Source: an uncultured bacterium (lineage in GTDB: Bacteria; Auribacterota; Tritonobacteria; UBA1439). Taken from it: a stretch of DNA of 12,637 nt. The notes under the pieces are model-generated. The model ran no database searches, was not told where the DNA came from, and was given only the letters and a program-made list of their open reading frames with translations. How positions within the stretch are numbered: the first letter of the stretch is position 1; each line of letters starts with the position of its first letter. The stretch covers positions 33,631 through 46,267 of the forward strand of contig CAYWRA010000007.1 of assembly GCA_964460305.1 (NCBI GenBank), in the 5' to 3' direction. A program made the position numbers and the translations under genes. Shown piece by piece: positions 1,397-12,637 of the stretch.

Positions 1397-2260
1397 CTAC
1401 TTCTCCTGCCGTTGCTCCCTTTTGAGCGGGACGACCCCGGCAAGTTCCCCGATCACGTTGATGAGCTCCGTGTCGGAGGGGAGAACCACTTTGGCATTGC
1501 TTTGGAGCGATTTCTCGACGGCCTCGAGCTGCCTGAGAATTTGGGCATTCCCGATGAAATATTTCTGTGCGGCTTCGTTGACTAGCCTGATGGCCTCCGC
1601 TTCCCCCTCGGCCTGGAGTATCCTCGCCTGCTTGATACCCTCAGCCTGCTTGATCTGAGCCCGCTTCTGCCCGTCGGCGGCCGTCTCCGTCGCAGTGGCG
1701 AAATCTATGGCGGCGATCTTCTCGTTCTCCGCCTTCACCACCTTGTTCATCGTCTCCTGCACGTCCTTGGGCGGATCGATCTCCTTCAATTCGGTCCTCA
1801 CGATGTCGATGCCCCAGTTGTGCGTCTCCTCGCATAACGTCTTGTGCAGCTCCTCGTTGATCTTACCCCGCTCGCTGTTCGCGGATTTGAGGGTTAGGGT
1901 TCCGATGATGTTTCTCAAGGTGGTCCTGGCCAGATTTACGATCTGCCACTTGTAGTTGTTCACGTTGTACTGAGAGCTCTTTACGCTCTCCTCGTCGGGT
2001 TTTACCTTGAAATACACCTGGGCATCCACGCGAGCGTTCAGGTTGTCGTTGGTAATGATTTCCTGCGGTTGCGCGTCGACCATCTGCTCGGTGGTGTTTA
2101 TCTGATACATCCGGTCGATCCCCGGAATGATCCAATGGAATCCGGGCATGGCAAACTTGTGATATTTCCCGAGTCGCTCGATAAGGCCGCGGTGCGTCGG
2201 CCTCACGATCCGGACGCCAGCAAAAAATATGACGACCACCGCAATGATTATGAAATACAT
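1397..2260 (-). CDS. SPFH/band-7 domain membrane protein (stomatin/prohibitin/HflC-like)
   Basis: 287-aa ORF with an N-terminal TM helix (MYFIIIAVVVIFFAGVRIV) followed by the typical SPFH core (RGLIERLGKY...PGFHWIIPGIDR...TNDNL...VDAQVYFKV) and a coiled-coil Ala/Glu/Gln-rich C-terminus (QAEGIKQARILQAEGEAEAIRL). AGGAGG SD 9 nt upstream; stop TAG at 1397-1399. Confidence 0.9.
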   Translation of the reverse strand: MYFIIIAVVVIFFAGVRIVRPTHRGLIERLGKYHKFAMPGFHWIIPGIDRMYQINTTEQMVDAQPQEIITNDNLNARVDAQVYFKVKPDEESVKSSQYNVNNYKWQIVNLARTTLRNIIGTLTLKSANSERGKINEELHKTLCEETHNWGIDIVRTELKEIDPPKDVQETMNKVVKAENEKIAAIDFATATETAADGQKRAQIKQAEGIKQARILQAEGEAEAIRLVNEAAQKYFIGNAQILRQLEAVEKSLQSNAKVVLPSDTELINVIGELAGVVPLKREQRQEK

Positions 2261-2386
2261 AGCCCTATCCCTCCTTCCCGACGGACAAAAAACGGCTTTT
2301 TAACCCACGATAGCGCCGTAGATGGCGATTGTCAATGACAAAGCTTTCACCGCGGAGACGCTGAGGGCGCCGCGGTTACGCAGAGC

Positions 2387-2851
2387 CTAACCGCGGAATA
2401 TGAAATAGACCGCCCCCAACAGGCAGAGGCCGGCCCAGGCATAGTTCAGCTTCACCGGCTGGTTCATGTAGAGAAGGGCGAACGGCACGAAAACCGAGAG
2501 GGTGATGACCTCCTGGATGATCTTAAGTTGGGGGAGGTTAAGCACTTCGTACCCGATGCGGTTCGCCGGGACCTGGAGGAGATATTCGAAAAGCGCGATC
2601 CCCCAGCTTGCGATTGCGGCGATAAACCATTTTTTGTCGTAGAGATTCCTCAGGTGCGCGTACCAGGCAAAGGTCATGAAGACGTTCGACAGGACGAGAA
2701 GCGCGATTGTTCTAATGATGGGCGGAATGGAAAACTCCTTCGTTTGTTTTTTCGATTGCCCGGCGAAAGCCGGGAATGGATAGTATAGCGCACTGCACGT
2801 GATCCGCAAGGGAGACACCCCGCCAAGTGGCGAGAACCACTCCCGGCTCAT
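2387..2851 (-). CDS. Small integral membrane protein, DUF486/DMT-superfamily-like (4-TM, about 110-aa core); the annotated ATG gives a 40-aa N-terminal extension
   Basis: The core TIALLVLSNVFMTFAWYAHL...WFIAAIASWGIALFEYLLQVPANRIGY...LKIIQEVITLSVFVPFALLYMNQPVKLNYAWAGLCLLGAVYFIF matches what I recall of the DUF486 (PF04342) small DMT-like proteins. The start at 2849-2851 overlaps the M48 stop as ATGA (ACATGAGCC), indicating translational coupling. An internal perfect SD AAGGAG at about 2737-2742, followed 6 nt later by ATT, could mark a shorter real start near 2728. Confidence 0.65.
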   Translation of the reverse strand: MSREWFSPLGGVSPLRITCSALYYPFPAFAGQSKKQTKEFSIPPIIRTIALLVLSNVFMTFAWYAHLRNLYDKKWFIAAIASWGIALFEYLLQVPANRIGYEVLNLPQLKIIQEVITLSVFVPFALLYMNQPVKLNYAWAGLCLLGAVYFIFRG

Positions 2852-4122
2852 GTGACGATCATCGCGTCCGTCTCAGCCGGCATGCGGCGGAGGTAGCCCC
2901 GCAGGGCGAAGATGCGCTGGAGTATGGGGGGATGGCTGTAATCCAGGAAAACCTTGACCGGGTGGGGCGTCAGGTTTGAGAGATTGTCGGCGCTCAATTT
3001 CTTCAGGGCTGAAATCAGCGCTTCCGGCCTCCCATAGGTCAGCGCGGCGTATGCGTCGGCTTGATACTCGTGTTTCCGCGAAAGGAGGTTCCCTAATATG
3101 GAGAGCACCGTTTGTATCGGAATGAATAGGAAGCCGAAAAAGAAGATGCTCGCATAAATGGAGACATGGCTCATTCCAAATGCCTCAAAAAGCCCCCTGT
3201 TGTTTATGAACAGGGAAAGGACGAAGAACATAAGCCCCGTCGTCAGTATCATGAGGAGGGTGGACTTGAGAATGTGCCCCCTTTTGTAATGACCCATCTC
3301 ATGCGCGAGGACGGAAACCAGCTCATCCACCGTATGTTTTTGGATAAGCGTGTCGAACAACACGATTCTTCGGAACCTCCCAAGACCGGCGAAGAAGGCG
3401 TTTGATTTGCCGGACCTCTTGGAGGCATCCATCGTAAACACACCTCTCATTTTGAAGCCCTGCGACCCGGCATAGTCCTCGATGGCGGTTTTAAGTCCCC
3501 CATCCTCAAGCGGCGTGAATTTGTTGAAAATGGGCATGATGACCGCAGGGGCTATAAAAATGAAGAAGAGCTGAAATAGCGCGATAGCAGCCCAGCAGAA
3601 GAGCCACGCCAGCTCCCCGGCGGCGGAGAAGATCCATATCACCGCCGAGAAGAGAATGCCTCCCAGGAGGGCGCTGAGAAGCCACTTTTTAATGGTGTCC
3701 GTGATGAAAGTCCTGCGAGTAGTTTTGTTGAACCCGAATTTCTCCTCAATGACAAAAGTGTGGTAGGCGTCAAACGGGATGTGGCACAGCTGAGACAGGA
3801 GCATCACCCCACCGGCGAACATAAGACCCGTCGGAATCTGGCCGAAACCGAAACCCCTGGCAAGGCGATCGATAAAATTGAAACCGCCGGCCAGGATGAA
3901 CCCTATTGTGAGTACGGTCGCCAATCCGCCGCTCAGAAGCGAAAGCGTCGTATTCTCCCTGAGATAAGCCTGCGATTTCCCATATTTTGACGGATCGTAC
4001 ACGTCCTTGAATTCATCCGGCAGCTCGGCCTTGAGGTGCCGGAGGTTCAGGAGGTCGGCGGCCAAGTCGAGCAGATAGCCGCCTACGAGAATGACTATAA
4101 TCGCCGCGAGATAGATGTTCAT
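2848..4122 (-). CDS. M48-family zinc metallopeptidase, Ste24/CAAX-prenyl-protease-like (multi-TM, HEXXH)
   Basis: HEMGH (in VLAHEMGHYKRGH) followed by a downstream Glu ligand region (HEYQADAYA); seven or more hydrophobic helices. I prefer the ATG at 4120-4122 (MNIYLAAIIVILVGG...), which has GGGA 7 nt upstream. The ORF-track start at 4161 is a TTG lying inside the heptamer repeat array with no SD. Confidence 0.85.
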   Translation of the reverse strand: MNIYLAAIIVILVGGYLLDLAADLLNLRHLKAELPDEFKDVYDPSKYGKSQAYLRENTTLSLLSGGLATVLTIGFILAGGFNFIDRLARGFGFGQIPTGLMFAGGVMLLSQLCHIPFDAYHTFVIEEKFGFNKTTRRTFITDTIKKWLLSALLGGILFSAVIWIFSAAGELAWLFCWAAIALFQLFFIFIAPAVIMPIFNKFTPLEDGGLKTAIEDYAGSQGFKMRGVFTMDASKRSGKSNAFFAGLGRFRRIVLFDTLIQKHTVDELVSVLAHEMGHYKRGHILKSTLLMILTTGLMFFVLSLFINNRGLFEAFGMSHVSIYASIFFFGFLFIPIQTVLSILGNLLSRKHEYQADAYAALTYGRPEALISALKKLSADNLSNLTPHPVKVFLDYSHPPILQRIFALRGYLRRMPAETDAMIVT

Positions 4123-4125
4123 GTA

Positions 4126-4173
4126 AAATCCCAAATCCCATGGGAAAATCCCAAACCCCAAATCCCAAATCCC
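4126..4173 (-). repeat. Array of six heptamer repeats AAA(T/C)CCC on the plus strand, (GGGAUUU)n in the mRNA sense. It is interrupted by the palindrome TCCCATGGGA and lies immediately 5' of the M48 start codon.
   Basis: Read directly: aaatccc aaatccc atggg aaaatccc aaacccc aaatccc aaatccc. The minus (mRNA) sense gives UUGGGAUUUGGGAUUUGGGGUUUGGGAUUUUCCCAUGGGAUUUGGGAUUUUAC-AUG, with six GGG tracts separated by 3-4 nt. Confidence 0.7.
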
Positions 4174-4389: not shown

Positions 4390-5739
4390 TCAAAACCGGC
4401 GCCAGAACGCCTTGGCGAGGGTGCGGGACTTCGCGCAGATCTTCTCCTCGTCCACGGTAAGCAGCTCGCCACCGCGCATGAGGATCTTCCCGTTCACGAT
4501 CGTCGTGTCCACTCTCGCCCCGCAGAGGCCGAAGAGGAAATGGCCGAGGAAGGTACCCTCATCAAGCGGGGTTGGCGGAACGTAGTCAAGAACGATCAGA
4601 TCGGCATACGCCCCTTTCGAGAGCGAGCCCACCGGCTTCGCGAAGTGCCGGCGCGCGATCGCCGCATTGTTCCTGAGAAGGAGGCCGCACGACTCGACGA
4701 AGAAGACGCGCGGATCCCTTGCGGCAAGCTTGTGGAGAATGTTCGCAACCCGGACCTCATCGCGCATGTTTGCGGTCATGCCGTCAGTCCCGAGACCGAC
4801 GAGCACGCCTTTAGCGAGCATCTTCATGACCGGCGCCACCCCCACCGCATTGTTCATGTTGGACTGCGGATTGTGCACCACGGGGGTGTCCGTGCTGCGC
4901 AACATATCCATCTCCGCGGGGTTCACGTGCACGCAGTGGATGGCGAGCGATTTCGGGCCGAGGCCTCCCGCCCTGTTCAAACGGCGCACCACGCGCTGGC
5001 AGTACTTCTTCTCATTGACCGCCTGGTCGGCGGCATCCTCCGCCACGTGGACGTGGATGCCGACGCCGAGATCGTTCGCCGCGGCGACGGATTCCACAAG
5101 CGTCTCCTCATTCACCGTAAAGAGGGCGTGAAGTCCGAACATGGCGGAGACCATGTCATTCCCCTTCTTTTGCGCCGCCTGTATTTTTTTGATAAAACGG
5201 ACGTTCTCCGCGATCCCCTCCTTCCCCTTCCCGTAACGGTCGGAGGACCCGAGGCTGAGGCAACCTCGCACACCGGTCTCACGCAGGGCGTCCTCGATCG
5301 GGTCGAGGCAGCCTTCCTGACACCCCTGGCTCTCGTGGTGGTCGATGATGGTGGTGGTTCCGCTCCGTATGCAATCGATGAGCGGAATGAGCGCGCTATA
5401 GTAAAGATCCTCCCTACCCAATGCCTTGTCGAGCGGCCACCAGAGGCGCTCGAGGATCTGGACGAAATTCGCCGGTGGCGGCTGCTTGGGCGATAACCCG
5501 CGGGCGAAGGTCGAATAGAGATGCATGTGAGCGTTGATCATCCCCGGCATAATGACCCTTCCGCCGGCGTCGATGTACGTCGCCCCAACCGCCTTCTTCT
5601 TCAGCGCCGCCGTCTTCCCCACCCCCTCTATGACGTCCCCCTTAATCCATACCGCTCCGTCATGTATGACCTTGTTATTTTCGCCGAGGGTGATGACTAT
5701 TCCGTTGCCGATTAACAGATCCTTTGTTTTAGAAACCAT
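4390..5739 (-). CDS. ssnA: SsnA-family amidohydrolase (metal-dependent hydrolase/deaminase superfamily)
   Basis: 449 aa with a subtype-I amidohydrolase HxH motif (INAHMHLY). Several blocks match what I recall of E. coli SsnA: LWWPLDKALGREDLYYSAL vs LWWRLDRALDEESLYYSGL; IIDHHESQ vs VIDHHASP; HNPQSNMNNAVGV vs HNARSNMNNHVGY; and the C-terminal AFWRRF vs MWRRM. GGAGGGAG SD 5 nt upstream. Confidence 0.9.
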   Translation of the reverse strand: MVSKTKDLLIGNGIVITLGENNKVIHDGAVWIKGDVIEGVGKTAALKKKAVGATYIDAGGRVIMPGMINAHMHLYSTFARGLSPKQPPPANFVQILERLWWPLDKALGREDLYYSALIPLIDCIRSGTTTIIDHHESQGCQEGCLDPIEDALRETGVRGCLSLGSSDRYGKGKEGIAENVRFIKKIQAAQKKGNDMVSAMFGLHALFTVNEETLVESVAAANDLGVGIHVHVAEDAADQAVNEKKYCQRVVRRLNRAGGLGPKSLAIHCVHVNPAEMDMLRSTDTPVVHNPQSNMNNAVGVAPVMKMLAKGVLVGLGTDGMTANMRDEVRVANILHKLAARDPRVFFVESCGLLLRNNAAIARRHFAKPVGSLSKGAYADLIVLDYVPPTPLDEGTFLGHFLFGLCGARVDTTIVNGKILMRGGELLTVDEEKICAKSRTLAKAFWRRF

Positions 5740-5784
5740 AACTCCCTCCGTAATAGTTAATTATGAACTTATCCACAAACATGT

Positions 5785-5818
5785 ACCCTTTCCCAAAGGG
5801 ACCCCGTTGGGGAAGGGT
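5785..5818 (+). repeat. Twin-hairpin element copy B with a closing 6-bp stem
   Basis: Element is ACCCTT-TCCCAAAGGGA-CCCCGTTGGGG-AAGGGT, 32 nt downstream of the ygfK-like stop in the mRNA sense. The architecture and orientation match copy A. Confidence 0.6.
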
Positions 5819-5850
5819 GCTCTACGGTGTGTGCTACAACATTCCCCAGC

Positions 5851-8361
5851 CTACTTCCCTGCCTTCTTCTCTTCGGGCGTGCGCTTCCTCAGCGATATGG
5901 CGTTCACAAAACACTGGAGCGCGCAGAGGCTGCAGCCGACACACTTTCCCGGGTCGGTGATCGGGTGCTTATCCTTATCAAGGGCGATCGCCATGTACGG
6001 ACAGCGGGTGCAGTTGCCGCAGCTCACGCAGAGATCGGGGTTCGCTTCGGAGATCTTTTTCTCAGCCGGCAATGCCATGAAATCCCTGATCGGCTTCGGC
6101 TGCGCTCTCCCGACAAGCTCCGAGACCGACCGTATCCCCCGGTCCTCCATGAGGTGGCTCAATCCGGAGCGGAGATCGTTAATGATTCCGTATCCGTATT
6201 TCTCCACGATGGTGCAGAACTGGACCGTGCCGGTGCCAAGCGCCAGGAAATCGGCCGCGGCCTTGTAATCCATGGGGCCGGCGTTCCCCGAGATGCAGAC
6301 GTCCATGCCGCCCGCGCTGGCAAGGCAGAGGTAGCTGATCGGCGTGACGCCATCGCCGCTCATGCCGACGACAATTCCTTCCTCCCACCCCTTCTTCTCT
6401 CCCTGCTTGAAGGCGAGTGTGGGGAACGTGTTCGCCAGCGTGACGCCCGCTTTCTTATCGGGATACTTTTCGAAGACCTTCTTCACGGCGCGCAGGATTA
6501 CCTTGATATCGGTAACGGCGCTGGTGAGCTTGAACAGCTTGGGGATCTCCGGTGAGCCGGCCTCCATCACCCAGTCGATGATCTTCGCCGTGAGGGCCGC
6601 GTTCTGCGATACGATGTCACCCTCCGCCCCCTCTCCCCCCTGCGGGCAGGAGAGGCTGTACTCGATGAAGAGCGCGCCGGCCTTTTCCAGCTTTCTCGTG
6701 TTGCTCTGCCAGGAGTTTCTATCGGCTGCGTCGTTCCCCGTCACCGTTCCACCCGTGGATGCGCCGGTGAGCCTGTCGGGGTATATCTTGATTAACTTCT
6801 TGATCTCCGCGCAGACCCGGTCGAGCGTGTGCTCGGAAACGTTATCGCAATTGCCCCAGGTCTTCTCGGTGAAGCAGTTCATGTACTCGGCGGGGATGTG
6901 GATCGGGAGGTTGTCGAACGCCGTCTTCAAAATCGCCCCCGGCCATCCCGCATCGTATCCGGCCTTCACCTGTTCGAATCCGTCCGTCGCGGGCGATGCC
7001 GACAGCAGGAATGGGCAGCTTATTTTCCTGCCGAAGAAATCCGTCTCAAGCGATACCGGCTCGAACTCGTAGCCTGGAACGGTGACGACGCTCTTGGTGG
7101 GTTTTTCGACCCTCGGTTTTTTACCGCCCATGAGGGCACAGTCGACCCCCAAAGCTGCGTTCTTGCCCGCCGCCGTCGCCTCGACGACCGTGGACGGGCC
7201 GTTGACCGCGTCGCCGGCATAGAATATCGCGCGATGCTTGACCAGTTTCATCCCCGGCTTTGCGCCGATGGCGACGATCACGCCCTCGATATCCTCACGC
7301 TCCTGTTCGCTCCCGTGCACCTCCTTGAGATCCTTGAGGCTGAATTTCTTCCCCGGCGGAAGCATAACCCTGACAGTAGAGAGACCGGCGATCTTTTTCC
7401 CCTTAGACTTTATCTCCTTCACGCGCGTGCGGCCGCTCACTTCGATGCCGTGGCCGAGCAGCTCCCGCCGCTCCCTCGCGGTAAGCGGCATCTCGCCGAT
7501 ACTCTCGAGAGCGAACATCTCAACCCTCCTCGCCCCCAGCCGCTTCGCCGTCACCGCACAGTCAAGCGCGCTCGCCCCTCCGCCGATCACCGCCACGTTG
7601 CCTTTCAACCGATATCTTTCAGGCTTCTTAAGATAATCGAGGCCGAAGATCGTTTTATCCTCGTTCGGTATTCCCATCCCGACGGGCGCCCAGAGTCCCG
7701 TCGCCACCACCACCGCATCGTATCCCTTGGAAAACAGTTTCTCCGGATCGTCGATCTTCTTACCGGCGCGCAGCTTTATATTCTCCATCGAGAATACGAA
7801 CTTGAGATCCCCTTCCAATACCGCCTTCGGCAGGCGGCACCCCGGTATGCACGAGCACATTCCCCCGGCCTGGCGTTCGCTCTCAAAGATATCCACCGCG
7901 TACCCCTTCTGGGCTAGTACGATAGCCGCGCCAAGCCCCGCAGGGCCGGCGCCGATGACCGCCACCCTCTTCCCGTTGAGGGGGGCGCGCTCGAACTTCG
8001 GCATCACCCCCATCGCCTTCGCCCTGGCGATGACGGTCGCCTGGACCGCCGGGATATTCACGGGGCTGTCGAACCTCTCATGCACGCATGCCTTCATACA
8101 ATGCCAGTCCGGGCAAACCATCCCGCAGATTCCGCCCAAGGGGTTCTGGCTCAGGATCAGCGCGGCTGCCCGCCTGATGTCGGACGGGTTCCCCACCCTG
8201 GCGGCCATGATGAAATCAAACGGTGAGCAATCGCAGGGGCATGCCTTTGTGCATGGCATCTCGGCGCAGTGCTCGCACTTCTCTATTTCACTTTCAAGCT
8301 GGGCCTCGGTGAGCAACACATTGTCCGGATCCGTCTTTAACGATAACTTCGACCTGGTCAT
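5851..8361 (-). CDS. ygfK: YgfK-like iron-sulfur flavoprotein. A single polypeptide fuses a GltD/PreT-like FAD/NAD(P) oxidoreductase (N-terminal Cys cluster region plus two Rossmann folds), a dihydropyrimidine/dihydroorotate-dehydrogenase-like FMN TIM barrel, and a C-terminal 2x[4Fe-4S] ferredoxin.
   Basis: N-terminus has CEHCAEMPCTKACPCDCSP and NPLGGICGMVCPDWHCMKAC, the GltD/DPD domain-II Fe-S motifs. Rossmann 1 is RVAVIGAGPAGLGAAIVLAQKGYAVDIFE and Rossmann 2 is VAVIGGGASALDCAVTAKRLG. Mid-region ISCPFLLSASPATDG...GWPGAILKT...EYSLSCPQ matches the DHOD/DPD (PreA) barrel with an active-site Cys. C-terminus CVSCGNCTRCP...CVGCSLCALQC is a 2x 4Fe-4S ferredoxin. AAGGAG SD 5 nt upstream. Confidence 0.9.
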   Translation of the reverse strand: MTRSKLSLKTDPDNVLLTEAQLESEIEKCEHCAEMPCTKACPCDCSPFDFIMAARVGNPSDIRRAAALILSQNPLGGICGMVCPDWHCMKACVHERFDSPVNIPAVQATVIARAKAMGVMPKFERAPLNGKRVAVIGAGPAGLGAAIVLAQKGYAVDIFESERQAGGMCSCIPGCRLPKAVLEGDLKFVFSMENIKLRAGKKIDDPEKLFSKGYDAVVVATGLWAPVGMGIPNEDKTIFGLDYLKKPERYRLKGNVAVIGGGASALDCAVTAKRLGARRVEMFALESIGEMPLTARERRELLGHGIEVSGRTRVKEIKSKGKKIAGLSTVRVMLPPGKKFSLKDLKEVHGSEQEREDIEGVIVAIGAKPGMKLVKHRAIFYAGDAVNGPSTVVEATAAGKNAALGVDCALMGGKKPRVEKPTKSVVTVPGYEFEPVSLETDFFGRKISCPFLLSASPATDGFEQVKAGYDAGWPGAILKTAFDNLPIHIPAEYMNCFTEKTWGNCDNVSEHTLDRVCAEIKKLIKIYPDRLTGASTGGTVTGNDAADRNSWQSNTRKLEKAGALFIEYSLSCPQGGEGAEGDIVSQNAALTAKIIDWVMEAGSPEIPKLFKLTSAVTDIKVILRAVKKVFEKYPDKKAGVTLANTFPTLAFKQGEKKGWEEGIVVGMSGDGVTPISYLCLASAGGMDVCISGNAGPMDYKAAADFLALGTGTVQFCTIVEKYGYGIINDLRSGLSHLMEDRGIRSVSELVGRAQPKPIRDFMALPAEKKISEANPDLCVSCGNCTRCPYMAIALDKDKHPITDPGKCVGCSLCALQCFVNAISLRKRTPEEKKAGK

Positions 8362-8408
8362 TCTTTCTCCTTTCTTAGTTGAGGTTTCTGAAAACTATAA
8401 ACGAGGAA

Positions 8409-9272
8409 CTAATCATTACGGCGAGCCATAACGCGGGCAAGTCCCCTCATCAGCAGCGCGCCGACCATCTTGTCGCGGTAATCCGCCGTGGACCGAATGT
8501 CCGTGATCGCCGTGGATTCTCCCTCAGCGATGCGCCCGGCCTCCTCGGCGACCTTTTCCGAATATGCCTTCCCCTCCAGATACGCGGCGGCGCGCTGCGC
8601 CATAATCACCTTGGGGGCGACCGCGCCAAGGGCTATCGCGACCTTCGACATGATCCCGCCGCGCACCCTGGCCTTGAACGCGACTCCCACCTTCGAAATG
8701 GAGAGCAGTCGCCTCTGGCCGAGCCTCTCGTAGAAGCTGATCTCATCCGCGCCGGGCTTCGCAAACGATATGACGGTGATGAGCTCGTCCGTCCGGAGAA
8801 CGGATTTCCCCGGCCCCACGGCGAAGTCTCTAATGGGCGCATGACGCTCCCCCGAGCGCGAGCTCAAGGTCAACACCGCGTCGAGGACCATCAGCGCCGG
8901 GACGGAATCGGCGACCGGTGAAGCATTCGCTACGTTGCCGCCGATCGTGCCGAGGTTCTTGATCTGCGGGGATCCGACGATGAACGCCGCCTCAGAGAGA
9001 GCGGCGGCGCATTCCCTTATGATCGGGGAGCGTTCGATCTCTCTGTGCGTGGCGAGGGGGCCTATCTTGATCAAACCGTTCTCTTCACGAATGTATCTCA
9101 GCCCGTTAAGGCGATTTAGATCGAGCAGGGCGCGGGGCTCCTTTTTTCCTTCGAGGACCTGGATAATGACATCCGTTCCCCCAGAGATCACCTTCACACC
9201 CTCCCCCTCGTGGGAGAGGATGTCGAGTGCCGCCGGCAAAGACTCCGGCGAATAAGTCCTAATGTCCCTCAT
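8409..9272 (-). CDS. FAD-binding subunit of a molybdopterin-dependent hydroxylase (CoxM/XdhB/YgfM family)
   Basis: 287 aa with VISGGTDVI and LGTIGGNVANASP motifs of the FAD_binding_5 domain. The start overlaps the upstream [2Fe-2S] gene stop by 4 nt (ATGA at 9269-9272). Confidence 0.9.
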   Translation of the reverse strand: MRDIRTYSPESLPAALDILSHEGEGVKVISGGTDVIIQVLEGKKEPRALLDLNRLNGLRYIREENGLIKIGPLATHREIERSPIIRECAAALSEAAFIVGSPQIKNLGTIGGNVANASPVADSVPALMVLDAVLTLSSRSGERHAPIRDFAVGPGKSVLRTDELITVISFAKPGADEISFYERLGQRRLLSISKVGVAFKARVRGGIMSKVAIALGAVAPKVIMAQRAAAYLEGKAYSEKVAEEAGRIAEGESTAITDIRSTADYRDKMVGALLMRGLARVMARRND

Positions 9273-9736
9273 GACGACAGCCTCTTGGCGGCAAGCTCTA
9301 CCGCCTCAAAAATCTTCACGTAGCCCGTGCAGCGGCATAAATTCCCGGAAAGCCCCTCTTTGATCTCCTCGATCGTGGGGCGAGCGTTATCTTCCAGGAG
9401 GGCCCTCGCCGAAATAAGGAAGCCGGGGATACAGTAGCCGCACTGGACGGCGCCTGTCTCCACAAACGCGTCCTGAAGCGCCTTGCCGATCCGGTCGGCG
9501 GCCAACCCCTCCACCGTGAGCACGTTCGCCCCATCTAGCCTGGCCGCAATCACCAGGCACGACGTGACCGCCTTGCCGTCCATAATAACGGTGCACGCCC
9601 CGCACTCCCCCTTACCGCACCCCTCCTTCGTACCAGTAAGTCCGAGGTCCTCACGGAGGACGTCGAGGAGCGTCCGGGTCGGAGAGGTCTCCAACTCGAC
9701 GCTTCTACCGTTGACGGCGAATCGCACTTTGATCAT
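9269..9736 (-). CDS. [2Fe-2S] iron-sulfur subunit of a molybdopterin-dependent hydroxylase (CoxS/XdhC-like)
   Basis: 155 aa. The N-terminus MIKVRFAVNGRSVELETSPTRTLLDVLRED is typical. Plant-type ferredoxin motif CGKGECGACTV; second cluster motif CGYCIPG...CRCTGY. Confidence 0.9.
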   Translation of the reverse strand: MIKVRFAVNGRSVELETSPTRTLLDVLREDLGLTGTKEGCGKGECGACTVIMDGKAVTSCLVIAARLDGANVLTVEGLAADRIGKALQDAFVETGAVQCGYCIPGFLISARALLEDNARPTIEEIKEGLSGNLCRCTGYVKIFEAVELAAKRLSS

Positions 9737-9760
9737 CTAACACTCTATCAATCCGGTTTT

Positions 9761-9902
9761 ACAAAGAGTAAAAGAGAGAAGAGAGGGATACGAAACAAAC
9801 GTCTCCCCCCTCCTTAACCCTCCCCCTCAGAGGGGGGGATGGGTGGGGGTGAGCACCATCCAATAACTCTTCTCTCGCTTCTTGTTCCCTTTTACTCTTT
9901 GT
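9761..9902. promoter_or_regulatory. Imperfect palindrome of about 140 bp in the 290-bp spacer between the Mo-subunit and Fe-S-subunit genes
   Basis: Outer arms ACAAAGAGTAAAAG (9761-9774) and CTTTTACTCTTTGT (9889-9902) are exact reverse complements. Inner GAGAGAAGAGAG (left) and CTCTTCTCTC (right) are partly matching. The centre is the perfect palindrome CCCCCTCaGAGGGGG (9822-9836), flanked by a C-rich left side (TCTCCCCCCTCC) and a G-rich right side (GGGGGGGATGGGTGGGGG). Confidence 0.5.
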
Positions 9903-9920
9903 GAGAACAAATTAACTACA

Positions 9921-9948
9921 ATCCGCGTTTGTCCGCGTGAATCCGCGG
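9921..9948. promoter_or_regulatory. Three direct TCCGCG repeats phased exactly 10 bp apart (ATCCGCG / GTCCGCG / ATCCGCGG)
   Basis: TCCGCG at 9922-9927, 9932-9937 and 9942-9947; read as aATCCGCGttt gTCCGCGtga aTCCGCGGca. Helical-face phasing is typical of arrayed transcription-factor sites. Confidence 0.45.
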
Positions 9949-9985
9949 CAAACAACTCTTTCTCTGTTAATTTCTCTGTGCTCTC

Positions 9986-10008
9986 TCCCGAAGGGACCCC
10001 CTCGGGGT
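9986..10008 (+). repeat. Twin-hairpin element copy C with no obvious closing stem
   Basis: TCCCGAAGGGA-CCCCCTCGGGG-T, 17 nt downstream of the Mo-subunit stop in the mRNA sense. In the mRNA it reads GGGGUCCCUUCGGGA, a C(UUCG)G tetraloop hairpin. Confidence 0.55.
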
Positions 10009-10026
10009 GTGTCTCCGTGGGGAAAA

Positions 10027-12303
10027 TCAATCTTGCTTCTTCTTCGCCAGTCCGGCGATGATCTTCTCCGGCGTCACGGGAAGCTCCAGGAACCTCACGC
10101 CTATCGCGTCATATATCGCATTGAGGATGGCAGGGGCTGTCGGCGTGGTCACGACCTCCGCTACACTTCGCGCCCCGAACGGCCCGGTCTCCTCCGGCAC
10201 CTCCACCGGGTGCGTCTCCATCTCCGGCGCCTCCCATGACGAAGGTATGATGTAGGTGGAGAAACCGGTATTTTTGAAATGCCCTTTCTCGATCACGTTC
10301 TCCTCATAGAGCGCATAACCGATTCCCATAACGATGCCGCCCTCACTCTGTCCCTCCACGTTGATGGGATTAATGACCGTGCCGCAGTCCGGGAACGCCG
10401 CCGCCTTCTTCACCTCCACCACGCCGGTGAGCGTATCCACGTCAACCACGACTATCTGCGTGTTGGAGCAGAAGACGAGGTGCGGCAACCCCATGGAGAA
10501 CTCCCTGTCGGCGACAGGAATGTTGAACACCCCCTCAGCCCTGAGCGGTTCCTTCAGCGCCGCCCCGATCTCCCGATAAGAAACCGAGGACTTCCCGTCC
10601 GCACTGACGACCGTCCCATCCCTGATCTCAAGCGAATCGGGAGAAAGGCCCATCATTCTCGCCCCTTCACGTTTCAGCATCCCGGCCATCTCACACGCCG
10701 CACGCAGCGTAGCCTCGCCGCTGGCATACATGACGCGGGAAGCTGTGGTCGTACCCGAATCGAGCGTCCTCCCGGTATCGCCACCGATAAAACTGATCTT
10801 CTCCATCGGAATGTCGAGAATCTCCGCCGCAATCTGCAAAATTCCCGTGTAGCTACCCTGCCCTATCTCGATCGTCCCCTGGAAAAGGTTGATAGATCCG
10901 TCCCTGTTAAGCTCCATGGTGGTCGCCGCGTAGTCCGGCAAACCCTTCCCAAGCCCGCTCCCCTGGAAACAACAGGCGACCCCGATCCCCCTCTTCTTCC
11001 ACCGGTCCCCCGCGCTCCCGTCCTCGATCTCCCTCTTGATGCGCGCTCTCTCTTTCCAGATCGGATGCCGCATGGCCTTCTCAATGGTCTCGTCCACGGC
11101 GAACGCCATGACCATCGGCTGGCCTATTCCGAACGTGTCGCCACGCCGGATGACGTTCTTCGCCCTGAATGCCAGGGGATCCATTCCAAGCCTCTCAGCA
11201 AGGACGTTCATCTGCGATTCCATGGCGACATGGGCCTGCGTAGCGCCGAATCCCCTGAACGCGCCGCTCATCCCATTGTTGGTATACACCGCCCAACCGT
11301 CCACCTTGAGGTTCGGGATCATGTATGGGCCGCAGGAGTGCTCGATCACGAGACAAAGGACCGGGCCGCTAAGCGACGCGTAGGCCCCGCCGTCTTGGAG
11401 CGCCCACATCTCATGTGCGATGAGCTTCCCTTCCGACGTCGCTCCCGTCTTCATGCGTATCTCGAGGGGGTGGCGATGCGTGCAGGAGATGAAATGTTCT
11501 TCACGGCTCAGCCAGATCTTGCACGGCCTCTTCGTCTTCAGCGCGAGGAGGGCGAGGAGTATCTGGACGGTCACCTCATCCTTGCCCCCGAACGCTCCGC
11601 CGGTGAACGGCTCGATCATCCGGATCTTCTCGGAGGGATAGTTAAGCGCCCTCGCTATTTGCGTAACGTCCCTGAATGCGTACTGGCCGCAGGATTGGAC
11701 GACTAGGGCGCCGTCTTTCTCGATCTGCGCGAACCCAGCTTCGCACTCGAGGAACGCATGATCCATCATCTGCGTTTTATAGGTGTTTTCGACGATGACG
11801 TCGGCGCCCGCGAATCCGGACGCAATATTGCCGCGGGTGAAGTGGAGCTCATGGACGACGTTACCGCCCTCGTGCAGTTTTATCGAATCCGCCTCAAGGG
11901 CTTGCCTCGGGTCGTCGAGCAGCGGCAGGATCTCGTAATCGACCTTGATGAGTTTAAGGGCCTCCTCGGCGACATCCTTCCTCTCCGCACCGACCAGCGC
12001 CACCGCGTCCCCCACATAGCGTACGCGATCGTCGCAGAGCACCGGCTGGTCCTGCCGTTCGATCCCGAAGCGGTTGGCGCCGTCCACGTCTTCGTGCGTC
12101 AAAACCGCCACCACACCGGGCAGTCTCTTTGCCGCGGATACATCGATGGATTTTATCTTCGCGTGCGGGTGCTTGGCCCTTAGCACCCTCCCCCAGATCA
12201 TGTCTTTCGCGTAAAAGTCGGATGGATACTTCAAGCTCCCATCCACCTTCGCCCTCGCGTCAATCCTGGGGACTCGTTTGCCAATGTATTTGTATTTACC
12301 CAT
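10027..12303 (-). CDS. Molybdopterin-binding large subunit of a xanthine dehydrogenase / aldehyde oxidoreductase family hydroxylase (XdhD/CoxL-like); the Fe-S and FAD domains are on separate polypeptides
   Basis: 758 aa. The N-terminus MGKYKYIGKRVPRIDARAKVDGSLKYPSD (a/b-hammerhead domain) is typical of the family. Length and general composition fit the Mo-MPT-binding subunit of this family. Stop TGA at 10027-10029. Confidence 0.9.
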   Translation of the reverse strand: MGKYKYIGKRVPRIDARAKVDGSLKYPSDFYAKDMIWGRVLRAKHPHAKIKSIDVSAAKRLPGVVAVLTHEDVDGANRFGIERQDQPVLCDDRVRYVGDAVALVGAERKDVAEEALKLIKVDYEILPLLDDPRQALEADSIKLHEGGNVVHELHFTRGNIASGFAGADVIVENTYKTQMMDHAFLECEAGFAQIEKDGALVVQSCGQYAFRDVTQIARALNYPSEKIRMIEPFTGGAFGGKDEVTVQILLALLALKTKRPCKIWLSREEHFISCTHRHPLEIRMKTGATSEGKLIAHEMWALQDGGAYASLSGPVLCLVIEHSCGPYMIPNLKVDGWAVYTNNGMSGAFRGFGATQAHVAMESQMNVLAERLGMDPLAFRAKNVIRRGDTFGIGQPMVMAFAVDETIEKAMRHPIWKERARIKREIEDGSAGDRWKKRGIGVACCFQGSGLGKGLPDYAATTMELNRDGSINLFQGTIEIGQGSYTGILQIAAEILDIPMEKISFIGGDTGRTLDSGTTTASRVMYASGEATLRAACEMAGMLKREGARMMGLSPDSLEIRDGTVVSADGKSSVSYREIGAALKEPLRAEGVFNIPVADREFSMGLPHLVFCSNTQIVVVDVDTLTGVVEVKKAAAFPDCGTVINPINVEGQSEGGIVMGIGYALYEENVIEKGHFKNTGFSTYIIPSSWEAPEMETHPVEVPEETGPFGARSVAEVVTTPTAPAILNAIYDAIGVRFLELPVTPEKIIAGLAKKKQD

Positions 12304-12368
12304 GATAAATCTTCTTGCGCACTATCCGTAGGGGCGCGATTCATCACGTCCATCCTTTACCACCGCAG

Positions 12369-12386
12369 GCCGGATAAATCCGGCCC
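12369..12386. promoter_or_regulatory. Perfect palindrome GGCCGGATAAATCCGGCC in the leader/promoter region of the hydroxylase operon
   Basis: 8-bp arms GGCCGGAT / ATCCGGCC separated by AA, located 66-83 bp upstream of the Mo-subunit ATG. Confidence 0.4.
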
Positions 12387-12416
12387 CTACAAAATATGTT
12401 ATCCCCCGCTTTCCCG

Positions 12417-12473
12417 AGTGATTCAGGGTCAAGTGATTCAGGGTCGATTCAGTCCCAAGTGATTCAGGGTCAG
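12417..12473. repeat. Tandem 15-bp direct repeats AGTGATTCAGGGTCA (three full copies plus one partial GATTCAGTCCCA) upstream of the hydroxylase operon
   Basis: Full copies at 12417-12431, 12432-12445 and 12458-12473, with a degenerate copy at 12446-12457. The GATTCAG core starts at 12420, 12435, 12446 and 12461. Confidence 0.6.
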
Positions 12474-12569
12474 ACCTCGACTATTGACTAAGAATATTTT
12501 TGTAAATCCGCCCCGCGAATTTCTTGTCATCCAACATCTATCTTCAGCCATCTTACACGGCTGAACCAT
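12438..12569 (-). CDS. Hypothetical 43-aa leader ORF (MVQPCKMAEDRCWMTRNSRGGFTKIFLVNSRGLTLNHLGLNRP) with a strong SD; very uncertain
   Basis: AAGGAGG (reverse complement of 12579-12585) lies 9 nt upstream of the ATG (complement of 12567-12569). The reading frame runs through the tandem repeats to a TGA at 12438-12440. Too short for the ORF track; no homology recognised. Confidence 0.15.
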   Translation of the reverse strand: MVQPCKMAEDRCWMTRNSRGGFTKIFLVNSRGLTLNHLGLNRP

Positions 12570-12636
12570 ACCAAGCTGCCTCCTTAGTGCTCTGGGTCAT
12601 AAGTTCGGTGACGTATTTTACGCCGCCGTTGCCACT
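12553..12636 (-). CDS. Possible 3' end of an upstream minus-strand gene entering from beyond the window (...SGNGGVKYVTELMTQSTKEAAWYGSAV*)
   Basis: 27 codons are open from the window edge to a TAA at 12553-12555. This is far too short to distinguish from a chance open frame in GC-rich DNA. Confidence 0.15.
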   Translation of the reverse strand, partial: SGNGGVKYVTELMTQSTKEAAWYGSAV

Positions 12637-12637
12637 A

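Follow-up and report, generated by a model that had tools for sequence, protein, structure and literature searches.

The anaerobic pathway for urate was solved only in 2025, in gut bacteria. Briefly, XdhD (DOPDH) reduces urate to 2,8-dioxopurine, YgfK (DOPOR) reduces 2,8-dioxopurine in turn, and SsnA then hydrolyses the product to ureidomethyl-hydantoin, after which HyuA, YgeW or UacY, YgeY and YgeX form the lower pathway to pyruvate (10.1101/2025.05.19.654654; 10.1101/2025.04.24.650524). SsnA and its reductase are described as co-localising because the reduction must be coupled to hydrolysis. YgfK is selective for 2,8-dioxopurine over its isomers (10.1101/2025.04.24.650524). In C. difficile, UacX, a homologue of dihydropyrimidine dehydrogenase (DPD) without a FAD domain, is found in place of YgfK; residue E606 of XdhD has been singled out as possibly orienting the substrate, and SsnA has been described as PydB-related (10.1101/2025.05.19.654654). 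A DHOD/DPD-like family, 'X1', was linked with ssnA, xdhABC, hyuA, ygeW and ygeY already in 2013 (PMC4016543). Here we analysed a 12,637-nucleotide (nt) stretch of DNA (contig CAYWRA010000007.1; hereafter the window), whose host is probably an uncultured anaerobe (Candidatus Auribacterota). It carries a five-gene operon for a predicted three-subunit molybdenum (Mo) hydroxylase, an 836-residue fusion reductase and an SsnA amidohydrolase.

We find it fairly likely that this operon is the upper, ring-activating module of the anaerobic reductive purine/urate ('2,8-dioxopurine') pathway, assembled from non-orthologous parts. The locus is best read as a new combination of enzymes that serves a known pathway, namely a hydroxylase of the PucD-like kind, a DPD-type reductase in one chain, and SsnA. 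An earlier note on this DNA had proposed that a hydroxylase, a DPD-like reductase and a ring-opening amidohydrolase form a reductive purine route, which was essentially right and is now backed by published biochemistry. Its statement that the reactions of YgfK and SsnA are unassigned is outdated, as both were assigned in 2025 (10.1101/2025.05.19.654654; 10.1101/2025.04.24.650524).

The fusion reductase and its SsnA partner

We examined the locus by calling open reading frames (ORFs) and scoring their products against Pfam and NCBIfam profiles. The window holds eight genes, all on the minus strand, and five of them form a real operon, recovered with the coordinates given previously. From 5' to 3' they encode the Mo subunit (758 amino acids (aa), 10027..12303; Pfam Ald_Xan_dh_C, MoCoBD_1 and MoCoBD_2), an iron-sulfur (FeS) subunit with two [2Fe-2S] clusters (155 aa, 9269..9736; Fer2 and Fer2_2), an XdhB-like FAD subunit (287 aa, 8409..9272; FAD_binding_5 and CO_deh_flav_C), the fusion (836 aa, 5851..8361) and SsnA (449 aa, 4390..5739). 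All five proteins had strong Pfam and NCBIfam matches, so these ORFs are not there by chance. The FeS stop and the FAD start overlap in an ATGA (a gap of -4 nt), as had been noted before. The other gaps are 290 nt between the Mo and FeS genes, 47 nt between the FAD and fusion genes and 111 nt between the fusion gene and ssnA, so that the tight spacing described earlier holds only in part. The domain content first proposed (Mo, 2Fe-2S and FAD subunits, a GltD-like/DPD-like/ferredoxin protein and an amidohydrolase) is correct by Pfam and by the match of the fusion to pig DPD.

The fusion matched pig DPD in three collinear segments over residues 20-835 (E 6e-49), with a PreT-like half followed by a PreA-like half in the order GltD-like domain, FMN barrel and two [4Fe-4S] clusters. 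Eight N-terminal cysteines at 29-92 are enough for two [4Fe-4S] clusters, GxGxxG motifs for FAD and NAD(P)H lie at 133-146 and 256-269, and two CxxCxxCxxxC motifs lie at the C-terminus (778-817). The cysteines, the GxGxxG motifs, the FMN barrel and the C-terminal motifs were invariant in a 12-member family alignment. At the active site (Lys479, Asn504, Ser571-Cys572 and Asn644-Thr645), pig DPD residues K574, N609, S670, the catalytic C671, N736 and T737 are all conserved, with N609, C671, N736 and T737 corresponding to N504, C572, N644 and T645 of the fusion. The uracil-contacting Asn668 of pig DPD is Ser569 in the fusion; this serine is invariant across the family, and E. coli PreA keeps the asparagine. 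The family also has active-site motifs of its own, T[YW]GNCDNVS and IEYSLSCPQGG. A Foldseek search with an AlphaFold model of the fusion returned full-length pig DPD as its top matches (E 1.6e-43), which adds a little support, the model having been built from a 12-sequence alignment with a mean predicted local distance difference test score (pLDDT) of 63.9 and being poor in the FMN-barrel region.

The domain order, the motifs and the pig DPD matches identify the fusion, at the level of sequence, as a single-chain PreT-PreA (DPD-type) enzyme of a distinct clade. It scored 141 against the YgfK model TIGR03315 (cut-off 835.3), with residues 31-403 aligned to model positions 441-832, and 193 against the PreA equivalog (cut-off 335). 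The hhalign alignment with YgfK was restricted to residues 32-414 of the fusion and 454-851 of YgfK; homology was thus detected only in the GltD-like part, and a circular permutation of YgfK was rejected. YgfK itself is built of a large N-terminal domain, a GltD-like module and a C-terminal domain, an architecture that the fusion does not have. We also rejected an ordinary glutamate synthase small subunit and an NfnB-like electron-transfer protein, since the catalytic residues of DPD are conserved in the C-terminal FMN barrel. The Pfam domain DHO_dh (PF01180) is weak or absent on the family, so that searches with PF01180 or the YgfK model largely miss it, and databases annotate its members merely as 'FAD-dependent oxidoreductase'. 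The PreT-fused form is not mentioned in Li et al. 2025, Liu et al. 2025 or Barba et al. 2013. The family appears to have escaped explicit description and to be widespread in uncultured anaerobes.

The SsnA protein passed both curated models over full-length alignments (NF005540, 549 with a cut-off of 444; TIGR03314, 531 with a cut-off of 455.5). Pfam Amidohydro_1 spans its residues 62-420, the HxH metal motif is HMH at 71-73, and the protein is 34% identical to E. coli SsnA by BLAST. It is the orthologue of E. coli SsnA and the sole orthologue in the set, and we predict that it is a ring-opening hydrolase acting on a reduced oxopurine.

To place the pair in a wider context, we scanned GTDB and found 509 stretches with relatives of the fusion, the best 80 loci of which were mapped by ORF calling and BLASTP. 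Enough downstream DNA was available in 71 of the 80, where SsnA was called at ≥45% identity to the window protein. SsnA starts at most 300 nt 3' of the fusion on the same strand in 46 of the 71 and further 3' in eight more. In L086, the fusion-SsnA pair is present alone. The fusion loci span about ten phylum-level labels, including Auribacterota, Verrucomicrobiota, Kiritimatiellia, Lentisphaerae, Armatimonadota, Anaerolineales, Cloacimonadota, Elusimicrobiota and Clostridia. Among the best 80 loci we found hyuA (6), ygeW-like genes (7), ygeX (4), ygeY (3), yqeA (2) and yqeB (2), as well as 12 XdhD-type Mo enzymes with the E606 insertion. Three loci (L043, L052 and L074) are near-canonical urate clusters with ygeY, ygeW, the fusion, ssnA and ygeX, in which the fusion replaces YgfK. 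In a protein-database search, the best 120 matches to the fusion were nearly all of about 830 aa and 59-100% identical, and the named ones came from metagenome-assembled genomes (MAGs) of many phyla. The conserved fusion-SsnA pairing and the co-location with pathway genes therefore provide strong contextual evidence that the fusion family takes the functional place of YgfK and UacX. We accordingly name the fusion of the window as a predicted NAD(P)H-dependent oxopurine (2,8-dioxopurine) reductase, which would be functionally analogous to YgfK/DOPOR and UacX.

Several variants of the fusion-SsnA arrangement were observed. An extra gene lies between the fusion and ssnA in L005 (12490-14025) and on the P0003 contig, where it encodes a PEMT-family methyltransferase; even among Auribacterota, then, the two genes are not neighbours in every locus. 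Six Chloroflexota loci (L058, L060, L070, L071, L077 and L082) have a second amidohydrolase, 42-46% identical to the window SsnA, a few kb 5' of the fusion, besides the SsnA immediately 3' of it. Chloroflexota have been reported to be without YgfK and UacX and to have an F420-dependent luciferase-family enzyme instead (10.1101/2025.05.19.654654). In contrast to this statement of Li et al., an Anaerolineales MAG (L047, 5188-15358) has a DPD-type fusion beside SsnA. In this locus, genes for F420-related proteins (Fno-like, CofE, nitroreductase-type, CofD and CofC) lie directly 5' of the fusion, and SsnA is followed by a luciferase-like (PF00296) gene; the layout of L070 is similar.

The molybdenum hydroxylase and the possible source of 2,8-dioxopurine

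The Mo, FeS and FAD subunits together resemble, by profile and motif, a PucD/XdhB-like three-subunit hydroxylase of the xanthine dehydrogenase (XDH) family. Among the NCBIfam Mo models, the Mo subunit scored highest against pucD (TIGR03196; 634.5, below the cut-off of 783.65), with lower scores against the selenium-dependent XDH model TIGR03311 (521, cut-off 830.45) and the XdhD model TIGR03313 (309, cut-off 1101.9), and its FeS domain is a separate gene rather than fused at the N-terminus as in XdhD. The FeS subunit stayed below the cut-offs of pucE (181), XdhC (181) and the N-terminus of Se_dep_XDH (183), and is 45% identical to E. coli XdhC. For the FAD subunit, XdhB was the best model (213, cut-off 310), with lower scores against pucC (92, cut-off 306) and YgfM (TIGR03312; 38.9, cut-off 241.5). 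In BLAST comparisons with XdhA and XdhD of E. coli, the Mo subunit reached about 30% identity to each. Its orthologues at 68-100% identity, where named, are all from Auribacterota ('Aureabacteria'), and the next relatives, at 46-50%, include the 'xanthine dehydrogenase D subunit' (PucD) of Bacillaceae and proteins from Caldisericia.

A neighbour-joining tree and motif inspection revealed that two types of Mo enzyme adjoin the fusion. One is an XdhD-like clade, represented at 12 loci, in several of which the FeS and YgfM-like subunits are encoded separately, and always carries the E606 (GEG) insertion. The other includes the window protein. E. coli XdhD and each of the 12 XdhD-like proteins have the insertion, and the window clade lacks it. 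The earlier note had read the Mo subunit as part of a split XdhD, which it is not: it lacks the insertion, and its nearest named relatives are of the PucD type. The window protein keeps the motifs AFRGFG and SVAEV, which we take to be the equivalents of bovine R880 and E1261. At the position presumed to match bovine E802, an aspartate (GGKDE) occurs only in the Auribacterota clade, and most relatives have GGKE. Further out, the second clade also contains FeS-Mo fusions, of which the L052 protein passes TIGR03311 (896, cut-off 830) and the L029 protein scores 792 against the same cut-off. This TIGR03311-type enzyme, a relative of the PucD type, sits in the canonical urate cluster of L052. The type probably includes the C. 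sporogenes DOPDH, to judge by its length and published domain coordinates (307-839) only; among the best 120 matches in a search with the L052 protein, all were environmental and none was named C. sporogenes.

PucD-like Mo enzymes also adjoin DPD-type reductases in other lineages. In L089 (7206-15163) and the Caldisericota locus L090 (3761-13644), Mo enzymes about 50% identical to that of the window lie beside a fused PreT-PreA (L089) or beside separate PreT and PreA proteins plus an 8-oxoguanine deaminase (L090). Their PreA-like proteins pass the PreA cut-off (417 and 424, cut-off 335) and also have serine at pig DPD Asn668, unlike E. coli PreA. Together, these features are a hint that oxopurines are the substrates of XDH-linked DPD homologues generally.

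In the scheme that we favour, the PucD/E/C-like hydroxylase would act on oxopurines, most likely forming urate from hypoxanthine and xanthine. Either an unlinked XdhD-type enzyme or the same hydroxylase would then carry out the 6-dehydroxylation that turns urate into 2,8-dioxopurine. In the fusion, electrons would pass from NAD(P)H through FAD and four [4Fe-4S] clusters to FMN and, with the catalytic cysteine of DPD kept, would reduce the C5=C6 bond in the uracil-like ring of 2,8-dioxopurine, replacing the YgfK of E. coli or the UacX of C. difficile. SsnA would at once hydrolyse the reduced ring to ureidomethyl-hydantoin or 5-ureido-dihydrouracil, and we propose that this immediate hydrolysis pulls the unfavourable reduction forward. 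Inferred here are the substrates of the enzymes, NAD(P)H as the donor and what the Mo enzyme does.

Several observations weigh against this scheme. The fusion is only about 22% identical to pig DPD in the structure alignment and falls below both the YgfK and the PreA cut-offs, so that its substrate is assigned from context only. The Mo enzyme is closest to PucD-type XDH and not to a characterised 2,8-dioxopurine dehydrogenase. SsnA is absent from the fetched flanks of the fusion in 17 of the 71 loci, and the fusion stands alone in some genomes (L085 and L087). Furthermore, no XdhD-type gene was found in the window or within 10 kb in L001-L003, L005, L006 and the P0003 contig, and hyuA, ygeW/uacY, ygeY, ygeX and yqeA were found neither in the window nor within 10 kb in the five syntenic Auribacterota loci. 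The published pathway is therefore incomplete here. In favour of the scheme, among MAGs of Auribacterota from Ace Lake, diaminopropionate degradation is independently annotated in three of the five described species (Williams et al. 2022, PMC9324843), nucleobase transporters in five of five and molybdate ABC transporters in two of five, and purine catabolism was not noted (PMC9324843). Such annotations would fit a genome in which the genes of the lower pathway lie at another place.

The strongest rival is a self-contained variant that needs no XdhD. In one form of it, the PucD-like enzyme of this clade would itself have turned into the urate/2,8-dioxopurine oxidoreductase, and might convert xanthine by way of urate into its isomer 2,8-dioxopurine without net oxidation or reduction. 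In the other, urate, a 5,6-disubstituted uracil, would be a direct substrate of the DPD-type reductase. This variant draws on the PucD-like enzyme being the only Mo enzyme near the fusion-SsnA pair in the window and in five syntenic relatives, on the aspartate at the bovine-E802 position unique to the Auribacterota clade, on the L089 and L090 loci, in which the serine for Asn668 is shared with the window family, and on the TIGR03311 type in L052 with its probable C. sporogenes member. However, a PucD-type dehydroxylase is without biochemical precedent, YgfK is selective for 2,8-dioxopurine over its isomers, and the missing enzyme may be encoded elsewhere in the genome. Moreover, the fusion-SsnA pair is accompanied by an XdhD-type enzyme in L008, L029 and L049, which suggests that the XdhD type is the usual supplier of 2,8-dioxopurine. 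In L008, the fusion and SsnA are 77% and 80% identical to those of the window, the M48 peptidase gene described below is in the same synteny, and an XdhD-type trio lies 3.4 kb past it. L029 and L049, both from Anaerolineales, have Mo enzymes of the two types, and split XdhD-type enzymes adjoin the fusion-SsnA pair in, for example, L008, L016, L019 and L067. We therefore consider the self-contained variant unlikely for this locus. It is somewhat more likely that the Mo enzyme of the window is a urate-forming xanthine dehydrogenase, with the dehydroxylase elsewhere, than that it is the urate/2,8-dioxopurine enzyme itself.

A broader form of this idea is put forward only tentatively: the PucD-like clade may have become a urate/2,8-dioxopurine oxidoreductase by convergence, or DPD-type reductases with serine at Asn668 may take urate-like oxopurines directly, giving an XdhD-independent route; separately, the fused reductase, and not YgfK, UacX or an F420 enzyme, may be the main partner of SsnA across uncultured environmental phyla.

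Another possibility is that the fusion and SsnA form a reductive pyrimidine-degradation pair (a DPD with a dihydropyrimidinase-like enzyme), functionally unrelated to the adjoining XDH. The full DPD architecture with its catalytic residues, the uracil phosphoribosyltransferase (UPRTase) gene found 5' in relatives and the description of SsnA as PydB-related would all suit such a pair. We judge it improbable, since the PreA model fails, the uracil-contacting Asn668 is serine family-wide, the amidohydrolase is SsnA by curated cut-off and not a dihydropyrimidinase, and the pair is repeatedly found near the purine-specific XdhD type, hyuA, ygeW, ygeX and ygeY.

Least probable of all is that the operon is a reordered version, with a split XdhD, of the orthologous selenium-dependent molybdenum hydroxylase (SDMH) set ygfK-ssnA-ygfM-xdhD of E. 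coli. In its favour, SsnA truly belongs to its family, the logic of hydroxylase, flavo-iron-sulfur reductase and SsnA is alike, and split XdhD-type enzymes lie beside the fusion in other genomes. The profile scores largely refute it, as the YgfK, XdhD and YgfM models fail widely (141/835, 309/1102 and 39/241.5). In addition, the hhalign match covers only the GltD-like part of the fusion, the E606 insertion is missing, the nearest named relatives are of the PucD type, and the 10-kb flanks of syntenic relatives showed no yqeB, yqeC or selD. Of the SDMH markers suggested in the earlier note, Se_ssnA passes (531, cut-off 455.5) and Se_ygfK, Se_sel_red_Mo and Se_sel_red_FAD fail. Nor is the cluster complete, as had been claimed, since a Pfam/NCBIfam scan of the window found no hyuA, ygeW, ygeX, ygeY, yqeA, yqeB, yqeC or selD. 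With yqeB, yqeC and selD not seen within 10 kb in the syntenic relatives either, selenium dependence is unsupported.

Returning to the reductive purine scheme, the results suggest that the key step of reductase and SsnA is common among environmental anaerobes not yet cultured, including Auribacterota, Verrucomicrobiota/Kiritimatiellia, Elusimicrobiota, Anaerolineales and Cloacimonadota, and that a DPD-type enzyme predicted to be self-sufficient with NAD(P)H serves it there, which matters for annotating purine and nitrogen recycling in anoxic habitats. The single-polypeptide reductase is also a candidate for engineered urate-degrading strains. The locus raises the question of which Mo enzyme supplies 2,8-dioxopurine in the host.

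Flanking genes and non-coding regions

In relatives, the genes 5' of the Mo gene encode UPRTase, a MocA-like cytidylyltransferase, an XdhC-type maturase (one case) and a ThiS/MoaD-like protein. In these relatives, the flanking check proposed earlier recovered MocA-like and XdhC-like genes and, within 10 kb, no yqeB, yqeC or selD. The ThiS/MoaD-family gene, of 75 aa, lies directly 5' of the PucD-like Mo gene in several lineages (L001:5931-6158; L005:5155-5379; L088:2199-2426; L089:9753-9980). The L001 protein ends in GGG, and the family matches no NCBIfam model. It could be the small subunit of the molybdenum cofactor (Moco) synthase or be specific to the Mo enzyme. In the window this gene may stop at the edge (12618-12637) or just past it, although tblastn with the L001 protein gave no match there.

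The non-coding region upstream of the operon (12304..12637, minus strand) contains tandem direct repeats of GACCCTGAATCACT(T/C)G-like units of 13-16 nt at 12420-12471. On the coding strand the repeat unit is GACCCTGAATCACTTG, present in three copies and one variant. These repeats could be an operator or a lineage-specific repeat; they are not kept in L005, the closest GTDB relative. The 290-nt spacer between the Mo and FeS genes (9737..10026, minus strand) has no credible ORF and contains C-rich/G-rich hairpins (CCCCCACCCATCCCCCCCTC...GGGGGAGGG), with an imperfect 28-nt inverted repeat whose arms lie at 9750-9777 and 9886-9913. The corresponding spacers of relatives are 110-390 nt long and have unrelated repeats of their own, such as the GCGGATT motifs in L005. 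Alignment of the spacer and the upstream region with those of relatives revealed no conserved operator or RNA. An Rfam scan (E≤1) for purine, xanthine or Moco riboswitches gave two sub-threshold chance matches, both within coding regions, and a promoter and terminator scan of the window found no more sites than in shuffled sequence.

The genes 3' of ssnA encode an M48 (CAAX-type) peptidase, a DUF486 membrane protein and a Band-7 protein (1397-4161), without an obvious link to purines. This block is syntenic in the Auribacterota relatives L001, L005, L008 and the P0003 contig. The M48 and DUF486 ORFs of the window exceed those of the relatives by 15-40 aa, so that their true starts are probably internal. 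A further minus-strand ORF of at least 360 aa (2-1102) runs off the window start; its N-terminus is signal-peptide-like, and it carries an HFHSDH motif (metallo-beta-lactamase-type HxHxDH) at 776-793.

Comparison with known systems

The hydroxylase resembles in layout Bacillus PucCDE (TIGR03196/03198/03199), which likewise has separate Mo, FeS and FAD subunits, and its Mo subunit is 46-50% identical to Bacillaceae PucD-type proteins. The MocA-like and XdhC-like genes 5' in the relatives of the window recall PucB (MocA-like) and PucA (XdhC-like). Unlike PucCDE, the window subunits fall below the equivalog cut-offs, the Mo subunit has aspartate at the E802 position, and the setting is an anaerobic, reductive one, where PucCDE belongs to the aerobic uricase route. 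The 'DHase X1' neighbourhood (PMC4016543), compared by its description, also joins a DHOD/DPD-like dehydrogenase with ssnA, xdhABC, hyuA, ygeW, ygeY and yqeA, but the PreT-fused form is not described there.

The E. coli ygfK-ssnA-ygfM-xdhD module has the same kinds of part as the window: a Mo hydroxylase that includes an FAD subunit, a flavo-iron-sulfur reductase of the NAD(P)H type, and SsnA, which is orthologous. The two differ in that the window reductase has the PreT-PreA order, with only the GltD-like part homologous to YgfK, that the Mo subunit is PucD-like with a separate FeS subunit and without the E606 insertion, that the FAD subunit is XdhB-like rather than YgfM, and that no lower-pathway or yqeB/yqeC genes are adjacent.

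Pig DPD (1H7W/1GTE) and E. coli PreT-PreA share with the fusion the order of domains, from a pair of [4Fe-4S] clusters at the N-terminus through FAD, NADPH and the FMN barrel to a second such pair at the C-terminus, and the catalytic Cys671 and most pyrimidine-site residues of pig DPD are kept. The fusion is shorter than pig DPD (836 against 1025 aa), has serine for Asn668 and, in contrast to both systems, is partnered by SsnA instead of a dihydropyrimidinase. In this pairing the window resembles the UacX-SsnA system of C. difficile, compared by its published description, in which a DPD/PydA-type FMN enzyme replaces YgfK beside SsnA. However, UacX (Q181U4) is reported to be without the FAD/NAD(P)H domain and probably uses ferredoxin, whereas the window protein has this domain at its N-terminus and should therefore be self-sufficient with NAD(P)H.

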